Below are positions 51,629 through 53,846 of a stretch of DNA of 64,000 bases, piece by piece. The stretch lies in assembly GCF_988243305.1 (NCBI RefSeq), contig NZ_OZ547136.1; one strand, 5' to 3'. Below the pieces are notes generated by a model. That model ran no database searches. It saw nothing but the letters and a program-made list of their open reading frames with translations, and was not told the DNA's origin. Positions within the stretch are counted from its first letter, which is position 1. Each line of letters begins with the position of its first letter. Both the position numbers and the translations under genes were made by a program.

Positions 51629-52348
51629 ATGGCTACTCCACACATTAATGCAGAAATGGGCGATTTCGCTGACGTAGTTTTGATGCCAGGCGACCCGCTG
51701 CGTGCGAAGTATATTGCTGAAACTTTCCTTGAAGATGCCCGTGAAGTGAACAACGTTCGCGGTATGCTGGGCTTCACCGGTACTTACAAAGGCCGCAAAA
51801 TTTCCGTAATGGGTCACGGTATGGGTATCCCGTCCTGCTCCATCTACACCAAAGAACTGATCACCGATTTCGGCGTGAAGAAAATTATCCGCGTAGGCTC
51901 CTGTGGCGCTGTTCTGCCACACGTAAAACTGCGCGACGTCGTTATCGGTATGGGTGCCTGCACCGATTCCAAAGTTAACCGCATCCGTTTTAAAGACCAT
52001 GACTTTGCCGCTATCGCTGACTTTGACATGGTGCGTAACGCAGTAGATGCAGCTAAAGCACTGGGCATTGATGCTCGCGTTGGTAACCTGTTCTCCGCTG
52101 ACCTGTTCTACTCTCCGGACGGCGAAATGTTCGACGTGATGGAAAAATACGGCATCCTCGGCGTGGAAATGGAAGCGGCTGGTATCTACGGCGTCGCTGC
52201 AGAATTTGGCGCGAAAGCCCTGACCATCTGCACCGTGTCTGACCACATCCGTACTCACGAGCAGACCACTGCCGCTGAGCGTCAGACCACCTTCAACGAC
52301 ATGATCAAAATCGCACTGGAATCCGTTCTGCTGGGCGATAAAGAGTAA
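51629..52348 (+). CDS. deoD: Purine nucleoside phosphorylase DeoD
   Basis: Start at [34 protein letters not shown] (239 aa). Confidence 0.95.
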
Positions 52349-52380
52349 TTGTGTTTCGCTGAAAGGCGAACGTCGTGTTA

Positions 52381-52413
52381 AGCCGGAGTGGGAGACCGCT
52401 CCGGCTTTTTATT
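52381..52413 (+). terminator. Rho-independent terminator of the deo operon
   Basis: AGCCGGAG-loop-CTCCGGCT followed by TTTTTATT, about 30 nt after the deoD stop. Confidence 0.65.
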
Positions 52414-52514
52414 ATCTATTCATTTCTCTCTCCAGCTTGAATATTTTCGCTATACTTTTCAGTGAAATGTGTTAATAAATCTATTCAAGTATCTATTCAC
52501 GAATCTATTCATTA
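52414..52514 (+). promoter_or_regulatory. Array of ATCTATTCA direct repeats (4 copies; the last 3 tandem at 12-bp spacing) abutting the yjjJ start codon
   Basis: Copies at about 52414, 52479, 52491 and 52503. No recognisable Shine-Dalgarno lies between the last repeat and the ATG. Confidence 0.35.
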
Positions 52515-53846
52515 ATGAGCGAACTGACCGATCTTTTATTGCAAGGGCCGCGTTCTGCCCCGGAATTGCGCCAGCGTCTGGCAATCAGTCAGGCGACGTT
52601 CTCACGCCTTGTTGCCAGAGAAGATCGGGTGATTCGCTTTGGTAAAGCACGGGCAACGCGATATGCACTGCTGCGTCCTTATCGCGGAATTGAGCGTATT
52701 CCCGTATGGCGAGTGGACGATGCCGGAAAGGCGCATAAATTCGCCGACATCCGGTTGTGCTGGCCGCAGGGAAGTTGTCTGGTAACAGGCGCAGATGGCG
52801 ACGAACAGTGGTTTGATGGTTTGCCCTGGTATTTGACCGATCTGCGACCGCAGGGGTTTTTGGGGCGCGCGTGGGGCAGGAAGTTAGCCGCGCAACTGAA
52901 TCTTACTGAAGATATCCGTCTCTGGCAGGAAGAAGATGTGCTCTACGCCCTGACCGTATTTAGCGGTGAATACACCGGCGGCTGGCTGGTCGGGGAGGGG
53001 AATTATCAGCGATGGATTACTGCACAACGCCCTGCGGCAATTCATCTGGATCAAAAACTCACCCGTTATGAACAACTGGCGCATGATGCACTGGCAGGAG
53101 AAATTGTGGGTTCTTCTGCGGGCGGCGAGCAGCCAAAATTTACCTGCTATGCACAAACGCCGTCAGGCAATAAACATGTGCTGGTTAAATTCACCGTGCC
53201 ACAGCAAACCGCGGTCAGCCAACGTTGGGGCGACTTGCTTATTGCGGAATCTATTGCCGCGCAAATCCTGCGCGACGGTGGGATCCACGCCATCGAGTCA
53301 ACGGTGCTTGTAACAAGTAACAGGCAGGTATTCCTTGAAGCGGAACGATTTGACTGCAAAGGTAACGATGGTCGCTTGCCCATTGTGTCGCTGGAGGCGG
53401 TGCAGAGTGAGTTTATCTCTTCTCCGGGATCGTGGCCGGAGGCTATGCGCCGTTTGTGTGAGCAACAACTTGTCACTCACCAGAGCGTGGCGCAAACAGA
53501 AGTGATCTGGGCGTTTGGGCGACTTATCGCCAACAGCGATATGCACGCAGGCAATTTATCATTTTATTTATCTGAACCACCATTTGCGCTGACGCCCGTC
53601 TACGACATGCTGCCGATGGCCTATGCACCAAACAGCGCCGGAATGTTGCGTGATGCTGCCATTGAGGTGAGGTTTGATCTTAACGTCAGTAAAAGTGCAT
53701 GGTTAACGGCGATCCCGCTGGCGCAGCAGTTCTGGCAAACGGTCGCCGGAGATCCGCGTATCAGCGAGGCATTTCGCCACATTGCACAAGAAATGCCGGA
53801 AAAAATCCGGCAAATCGAAGGGAAAGTTGCCCGCATGGGCGGGTAA
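52515..53846 (+). CDS. yjjJ: HipA-family Ser/Thr kinase toxin homologue with N-terminal HTH, YjjJ
   Basis: 443-aa ORF with an N-terminal HTH (…ISQATFSRLVAREDRVIRFGKARATRYAL…) and a C-terminal HipA-like kinase core (…DMHAGNLSF…). Confidence 0.88.
   Translation: MSELTDLLLQGPRSAPELRQRLAISQATFSRLVAREDRVIRFGKARATRYALLRPYRGIERIPVWRVDDAGKAHKFADIRLCWPQGSCLVTGADGDEQWFDGLPWYLTDLRPQGFLGRAWGRKLAAQLNLTEDIRLWQEEDVLYALTVFSGEYTGGWLVGEGNYQRWITAQRPAAIHLDQKLTRYEQLAHDALAGEIVGSSAGGEQPKFTCYAQTPSGNKHVLVKFTVPQQTAVSQRWGDLLIAESIAAQILRDGGIHAIESTVLVTSNRQVFLEAERFDCKGNDGRLPIVSLEAVQSEFISSPGSWPEAMRRLCEQQLVTHQSVAQTEVIWAFGRLIANSDMHAGNLSFYLSEPPFALTPVYDMLPMAYAPNSAGMLRDAAIEVRFDLNVSKSAWLTAIPLAQQFWQTVAGDPRISEAFRHIAQEMPEKIRQIEGKVARMGG

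Follow-up and report, generated by a model that had tools for sequence, protein, structure and literature searches.

Among the Hip kinases of Escherichia coli K-12, HipH (YjjJ) is the least understood. The gene comes without an antitoxin gene, the literature on the protein says that its helix-turn-helix (HTH) 'may bind DNA', and how HipH is controlled has been named an open question (Gerdes et al. 2021). The locus analysed here, a stretch of 64,000 nucleotides that we call the window, raises the question of what the short direct repeats just upstream of hipH are for, and whether HipH itself could be the protein that reads them. In the literature mentioning yjjJ or HipH we found no description of these repeats or of a HipH operator.

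A direct-repeat array in front of hipH

The hipH coding sequence occupies positions 52515-53846 of the window (+ strand, 443 aa), and its product matches the NCBIfam YjjJ equivalog with 676 bits against a cut-off of 401, so the gene is E. coli yjjJ/hipH, and a first-pass annotation of this DNA was right to name it yjjJ. Upstream, the hipH control region is limited by the intrinsic terminator of deoD (52380-52412, + strand), detected in a terminator scan with a 12-bp stem and a T-tract; the deoD stop codon is at 52346-52348. All the exact matches to ATCTATTCA in the window lie between this terminator and the hipH start. There are exactly four of them, starting at 52414, 52479, 52491 and 52503, all on the + strand, compared with 0.31 expected by shuffling, and none of 100 shuffles of the window contained four or more. 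When one mismatch was allowed, the remainder of the window stayed at background level.

We refer to these putative operator copies as O_D (distal, 52414-52422) and as O1 (52479-52487), O2 (52491-52499) and O3 (52503-52511), the proximal set. The first-pass annotation had reported four copies upstream of yjjJ, the last three in 12-bp register, and both points hold: Tandem Repeats Finder returned a tract at 52478-52511 with a period of 12 and 2.8 copies. The repeats are direct and have a single orientation. O_D lies 65 bp upstream of O1 (start to start) and precedes the -35 element described below by about 29 bp, O1 overlaps the end of the -10 element and the predicted transcription start, O2 falls in the transcribed leader, and O3 occupies the place of a Shine-Dalgarno (SD) sequence. 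The array had also been described as ending directly at the ATG, which needs a small correction: it does end next to the start codon, but three nucleotides (TTA) separate the end of O3 at 52511 from the hipH ATG at 52515. Since an in-frame TAA stands at 52476-52478, hipH has no upstream in-frame ATG, GTG or TTG start. Separately, CTTGAATA at 52436-52443 matches TATTCAAG of repeat 1 perfectly in inverted orientation, and could therefore be an opposite-strand half-site inside the spacer; this inverted match is not kept in E. albertii or in other genera.

In HipH, a winged helix at the N-terminus is followed by a beta subdomain and then by the HipA-like kinase domain, which Pfam HipA_C matches over residues 200-428 (E = 1.5e-20); the HTH is contained in an N-terminal extension of about 100 aa. 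That YjjJ has an N-terminal HTH, as first proposed from the sequence, is borne out by a structure model in which residues 1-55 (encoded at 52515-52679, + strand) adopt, with a confident fold, an ArsR/MarR-type winged helix made of a three-helix bundle and a beta-hairpin wing. The recognition helix, SQATFSRLVAR (residues 25-35; 52587-52619, + strand), lies within this part and is among the best-conserved stretches of the family, with the consensus ISQPTLSR and with S25, Q26, S30 and R31 conserved at 90% or more. A sequence search of the PDB with HipH gave no match.

The gene is monocistronic, lying between the deoD terminator and the convergent lplA with no adjacent antitoxin gene, and most related hipH loci likewise have no conserved partner gene. 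One exception is a metagenomic contig (L032, 1-2856) in which a complete hipB-hipA pair is immediately followed by the hipH homologue; this homologue carries the variant helix SQASVSI, and the words upstream of it are ATCTATTAAT and CTATTTA. The stop codons of hipH (+) and lplA (-) are adjacent at 53846/53847 with zero intergenic bases, so these two convergent mRNAs must overlap; yjjJ is mentioned in a publication on such overlapping transcription ('excludons', PMC12288877). As to classification, the kinase domain, the HTH extension and the monocistronic gene are all features of clade X that were found in HipH (Gerdes et al. 2021).

Conservation of the array and covariation with the recognition helix

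In complete E. coli genomes the three proximal copies form one ungapped block in 5,249 of 5,426 cases, so the repeat number, whose conservation across strains had been left to be checked, is stable, and at BLAST sensitivity each genome holds only one array. For a wider comparison, a protein-based scan taking one genome per species gave 20 orthologous loci, from Escherichia albertii, Pseudocitrobacter, Leclercia, Buttiauxella, Dryocola, Cedecea, Erwinia and Yersinia as well as from a Burkholderiales MAG and a Gallionellaceae MAG, both at 37-42% protein identity. All 20 have copies of (A/T)TCTATTCA with a 12-bp period that stop a few nucleotides before the start codon, the word in the Betaproteobacteria being ATCCATTCA. 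Three proximal copies are found in most orthologues, four in Yersinia and two in the Betaproteobacteria; O1 is kept, and every one of the 19 Enterobacterales orthologues has a distal copy about 65 bp upstream. Next to hipH, the two Betaproteobacteria have a metalloprotease, or PsiE and MinC, and not deoD; the array thus goes with hipH and not with the deoD neighbourhood. In the Gallionellaceae homologue (L024, 3336-4588) the match spans 414 residues but the ORF stops after 341 codons, which probably reflects a frameshift in this MAG or a pseudogene; both of its repeats are intact.

A search of 1.84 billion representative proteins returned 651 HipH family representatives at E < 1e-30, most of them full-length. 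Eleven further distant members (34-44% identity) were picked blind to the motif, and all 11 show the same array layout in unrelated gene contexts, while a metagenome scan with an alignment of full-length proteins added 80 loci. The statistics that follow cover the 107 HipH loci whose upstream DNA extends for 220 nt or more (35-97% identity), with far-upstream control DNA available for 96 of them.

On the gene strand the core [CT][ACT]ATTCA occurs 263 times upstream of hipH, 8 times within the gene and 8 times in the far-upstream control, compared with 10, 11 and 4 times on the opposite strand, where the core is not enriched upstream of hipH. ArsR/MarR-type winged helices normally bind palindromes as dimers, which makes a head-to-tail arrangement at 12 bp unusual, and the strand bias (263 versus 10) sets the HipH sites apart from the inverted repeats that such regulators recognise. 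A motif-blind search for periodic 8-mer pairs was positive upstream of hipH in 96 of 107 loci, within the gene in 32 of 107 and in the far-upstream control in 41 of 96. The pairs were spaced by 12 bp (610 pairs) far more often than by 11 bp (148), 10 bp (32) or 13 bp (9), and ATTCA was common to both members of the pair in 70 loci.

Geometry was measured in the 80 loci that carry two or more canonical cores. Of the 132 repeat intervals, 122 measure 12 bp and 10 measure 11 bp. In most loci the proximal set comprises two to four copies, the last core ends within 9 nt of the next in-frame start in 64 of the 80, and a distal set is present in 50. The distances between the distal and proximal sets cluster at 54-56, 63-66, 76-78 and 88-90 bp, that is, in steps of about 11 bp or roughly one helical turn. 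Such quantised spacing is a property of double-stranded DNA and not of RNA. The cores are kept while spacers and flanks diverge, down to 35% protein identity. The largest array seen belongs to a homologue with the helix SQPAISR (L111), which has seven tandem copies of GTTTTCTATTC with an 11-bp period in the interval between about 110 and 35 nt before the match start (1284).

The repeat word also changes with the protein. Seventeen loci lack the canonical core, and they are almost exactly the loci whose recognition helix departs from S-Q-x-T-x-S-R; these variant-helix loci have tandem repeats of their own in the same place and orientation. Thus ATCGTTTCA is found with the helix SR[AP]T[LM]MR (L070, L106 and L107, in three clusters) and with S[PA]ATLSR (L109, L114), TCGTTAC with SRPTLAR (L048, L057), (T)GTTGCA with NRSTL[MS]R (L097, L100), TTATTGATGCA with DRSTVTR (L047), AAATCAA with PPATLMR (L062), a TATCATAA-like word with SV[AP]T[LV]HR (L073, L104) and TAATTCATTATA with SQPALSL (L034). 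An exact 7-mer periodic word finder misses several of these variant arrays, which contain one mismatch, and marking at 7 of 8 positions makes them visible. In L047, TTATTGATGCA forms a distal set of 2.5 copies and recurs as two further copies in the first codons (..SVIDAIID..; match start 1501), and here the proximal putative operator therefore appears to reach into the coding sequence.

At least two canonical cores are present in 79 loci with the canonical helix and absent from 8, while among loci with a variant helix the counts are 1 and 19 (Fisher p = 7.5e-14, all loci). After dereplication to 57 clusters at 60% N-terminal identity the corresponding counts are 38, 4, 1 and 14 (p = 5.4e-9). 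The eight canonical-helix exceptions are degenerate arrays with the same layout, and within the canonical class 42 clusters share one word despite their diverged surroundings. The helix classes probably correspond to clades, which puts the count of independent covarying changes at roughly 6-8 and not 20. A pattern of this kind would be expected of a protein encoded next to its own sites, and would not be expected from an unlinked host factor, the ribosome or RNA polymerase.

Promoter, published mapping and a proposed mechanism

A consensus promoter scan found no strong sigma-70 promoter in the hipH upstream region, and the probable promoter, placed from the orthologues and from Reg-Seq data, is for that reason called weak. 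Its probable sigma-70 -35 element is TATACT (52451-52456, + strand), which aligns with CTTTAC(C/A)TTTCA in the orthologues, the -35 in other genera being TTTAC(C/A); its probable extended -10 is TGtTAATAA (52470-52478, + strand), which adjoins repeat 1. In the orthologous spacers CTTTAC(C/A)TTTCA is followed, after 17 nt, by TATAAA immediately 5' of the first proximal core, and across the HipH family -10-like hexamers lie 0-8 nt before that core. The deoD-hipH spacer also contains a SELEX peak reported for the RpoD holoenzyme (Shimada et al. 2014).

Reg-Seq (Ireland et al. 2020, PMC7567609) covered the identical DNA. The yjjJ start used there, MG1655 4,621,716, is a computational prediction, and so probably stands in databases too; it lies 53 nt upstream of the hipH ATG (4,621,769), which places it at 52462 in the window. 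Converted in this way, the Reg-Seq -35 call (-18 to -6) corresponds to 52444-52456 and contains TATACT, the -10 call (+9 to +22) corresponds to 52471-52484 and contains TGtTAATAA and the start of O1, and the merged RNA polymerase footprints (-24 to +19; 52438-52481) mark the promoter. Two repressor sites were also called, one assigned to MarA that overlaps the promoter (-24 to +18; 52438-52480) and one with no factor named (+30 to +45; 52492-52507) that covers O2 and the first half of O3. The latter was called only in the heat-shock data set and is clipped at the edge of the mutagenised library (+45 = 52507), inside O3; no signal was reported at O_D (PMC7567609). The repeat structure went unnoticed in that study (PMC7567609). 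The conserved, HipH-linked repeats explain this orphan repressor site.

The RNA polymerase index for yjjJ in the same work is 126, compared with 103-104 for correctly placed genes, so the real promoter should lie about 22-23 bp downstream of the start assumed at 52462 (PMC7567609). With the -10 at 52473-52478, transcription would start near 52485, at about 4,621,739 in MG1655. Relative to this position O1 spans about -6 to +3, O2 +7 to +15 and O3 +19 to +27, with the ATG at +31 and O_D at about -71 to -63, a geometry that fits repression.

The anatomy of the sequence, the conservation of the array as it follows hipH into unrelated contexts, its strand specificity and phasing, its covariation with the recognition helix and the published promoter and repressor-site mapping at O2-O3 all point in one direction. 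We therefore consider it probable that the repeats are HipH's own operator, as the first-pass annotation had suggested, with HipH as the binder, and that HipH bound to them head-to-tail represses its own promoter. In such a mechanism the ArsR/MarR-type winged helix of HipH would read the 8-bp core TCTATTCA, and HipH molecules would occupy the three proximal copies head-to-tail at 12-bp spacing, covering the -10 and the transcription start through to the start codon. The phased distal copy, 65 bp upstream and beyond the -35, would bracket the promoter, probably through cooperativity or a DNA loop. Occupancy would block RNA polymerase, and the resulting negative autoregulation would keep the toxin kinase low. 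A second brake may act at translation: because the putative operator fills the leader, the mRNA has no SD sequence and is probably translated poorly.

Several observations count against this reading, namely that the Reg-Seq signal at O2-O3 came from one condition, that O_D was silent, that MarA was assigned at the promoter, that ArsR/MarR folds as a rule dimerise on palindromes, that strains without hipH keep the array (see below), and that a ChIP-exo experiment with chromosomally myc-tagged YjjJ in K-12 gave no binding peaks (Gao et al. 2021). This last result was obtained at the native, very low level of YjjJ expression by authors who assumed that the protein has no HTH, and we take it as real but weak negative evidence (Gao et al. 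2021).

Among the closest known systems is hipBA of E. coli K-12, in which the promoter of a Hip kinase is likewise overlapped by several short operator copies read by an HTH from the same module (PMC8262856). At hipH, Reg-Seq mapping and the family's -10-like hexamers place O1 next to the -10 and O2 and O3 in the leader. The logic proposed here is the negative autoregulation typical of type II toxin-antitoxin systems (PMC8262856). The components differ, however. HipB is a separate Cro/Xre-type dimer on palindromes (TATCC-N8-GGATA), whereas HipH has an HTH of the ArsR/MarR winged-helix type that is fused in cis to its kinase, and the sites are one-orientation direct repeats with a 12-bp period, accompanied by a phased distal site. 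HipB-type operators were considered and rejected: with two mismatches allowed, TATCC-N8-GGATA occurs 20 times in the window against 17.6 expected and never in 52349-52514, in keeping with the earlier remark that the direct repeats are unlike palindromic HipB operators.

Head-to-tail binding by winged helices has a precedent in the OmpR/PhoB-type response regulators, which occupy tandem direct repeats about one helical turn apart, at 10-11 bp, in the way that HipH may do by analogy. Cooperative head-to-tail binding of HTH-type proteins on direct-repeat arrays has also been described for BldC (PMC5859096) and for the Apl excisionase of phage 186 (10.1101/784983), which, going by those descriptions, belong to other folds and families and have no attached enzyme.

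Alternative readings and implications

HipH could bind the repeats to other ends, either activating its own promoter or being docked on the array so that its kinase activity (or its reported DNase activity) is controlled, by analogy with HipA, which the HipA2-HipB2 complex on operator DNA keeps inactive. What is known of c-di-GMP would suit such a role, since it binds HipH and induces hipH transcription only when the native promoter is present, as would the requirement of the HipH HTH for toxicity and nucleoid localisation (eLife 2024) and the appearance of the O2-O3 repressor signal in a single Reg-Seq condition. Sites over the -10, the start and the leader are, however, typical of repression and awkward for activation, the Reg-Seq signal was repressor-like where it was detected, and one operator per genome cannot sequester many molecules, so we consider both variants unlikely.

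Another host factor, such as MarA, H-NS or an unidentified regulator, might read the repeats while the HipH HTH has its targets elsewhere. In favour of this are the Reg-Seq assignment of MarA to the overlapping site, the flagging of H-NS in the deoD-hipH spacer (Shimada et al. 2014), the negative ChIP-exo result and the array's retention in E. coli strains without hipH. The gene is present in about a quarter of complete E. coli genomes (1,314-1,365 of 5,426). In about 72% of them (some 3,900, including E. coli B and O157:H7) the hipH coding sequence, from the ATG to the end of the gene, is replaced by a segment carrying an 87-aa Xre-type HTH gene on the opposite strand, downstream of lplA, whose TGA stop lies inside repeat 3 (in E. 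coli B, L002 2670-2933; the replaced allele is also that of L003 and L004). Comparison of the two alleles shows 9 of 9 positions identical in the distal copy and 36 of 38 in the array, but 22 of 54 in the intervening spacer (window 52423-52476 versus L002 2584-2637), with flanks 95-100% identical. The hipH-less allele therefore seems to have come, by recombination, from a much more divergent hipH locus; it has TTTCA at an unchanged distance from the array.

Because deoD-hipH synteny spans the Enterobacterales, the hipH-less allele is derived and its putative operator orphaned; on this comparison, most E. coli strains appear to have lost hipH and yet kept its putative operator. The 87-aa Xre protein showed no similarity to HipH or to HipB, and is therefore no obvious substitute binder. 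Another factor could use the retained array, and recent gene loss explains its retention equally well. Three further points weigh against another factor: the array follows hipH into Betaproteobacteria and many metagenomic lineages, where the neighbours are unrelated and no second gene is inherited along with it, the repeat word shifts with the HipH recognition helix, and the Reg-Seq MarA site covers the promoter and not repeats 2-3. We regard a reader other than HipH as quite improbable.

A third possibility, raised in the first-pass annotation as a translational control element, is that the SD-less leader of UCUAUUCA repeats acts mainly at the RNA level, controlling translation initiation or binding an RNA-binding factor. 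The missing SD noticed there is real, as the anti-SD duplex energy over the 18 nt before the hipH ATG is +0.1 kcal/mol, compared with -5.4 for deoD and -5.6 for lplA, and it is a conserved feature of the HipH family: an SD-like 4-mer precedes 3 of 62 hipH genes but 99 of the 237 ORFs taken from these loci as controls, and the mean duplex energies are +0.76 and -3.59 kcal/mol (p = 1e-23). The position of the array so close to the start codon in most loci, and a leader that is unusually unstructured (z = +1.88), could be read in the same sense. The distal copies, however, lie upstream of the promoter and hence outside the hipH mRNA, so the absence of an SD is no evidence for a separate RNA element; since the putative operator fills the leader, that absence is more simply read as a consequence, possibly a useful one. 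The helical phasing of the distal-to-proximal spacing and the covariation of the word with a DNA-binding helix are, moreover, properties of DNA. A structural RNA element was rejected, the leader having no stable structure and being less folded than shuffles, and an Rfam scan of 52300-52700 returned nothing relevant beyond a sub-threshold match to the deoD terminator, with no conserved structure. Control at the RNA level is accordingly very improbable.

Finally, the array might be a tandem duplication that is neutral, a repeat of variable number, or the scar that recombination left where a replaceable gene cassette begins, as could be suggested by homology between the two E. coli alleles ending exactly at the 3' edge of the array. 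This is hardly credible given the invariant copy number in 5,249 E. coli genomes and the conservation of the cores between diverging spacers and flanks, which contradicts neutrality.

Returning to HipH as the repressor of its own promoter, the putative operator offers a simple mechanism for the reported induction of hipH by c-di-GMP. A ligand-released autorepressor would jointly explain the binding of c-di-GMP by HipH and the dependence of induction on the native promoter. More speculatively, c-di-GMP would be an inducer, freeing HipH from the TCTATTCA array, the head-to-tail assembly of HipH on the 12-bp repeats would gate the kinase, and the DNA would play the part of HipB; we put this forward tentatively, as a possibility that is more doubtful than not.

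Toxin genes under autoregulation by their own HTH are a known kind. What is new here is the kinase-fused winged helix with a putative operator of 12-bp head-to-tail direct repeats and a phased distal site, and the covariation of the two across the family; relative to Reg-Seq, family-wide conservation and the link to the HipH recognition helix are added. The modelled winged helix corrects the assumption of the ChIP-exo screen that YjjJ has no HTH. For the least understood Hip kinase of K-12, the result gives a testable answer to the question of transcriptional control, in the form of a four-site direct-repeat putative operator with base-pair coordinates, and the protein-DNA covariation supplies natural specificity-swap experiments. 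If HipH is indeed a repressor-kinase released by c-di-GMP, the correspondences between helix and repeat would amount to a recognition code, and the HipH loci would define a new class of winged-helix, direct-repeat operators.
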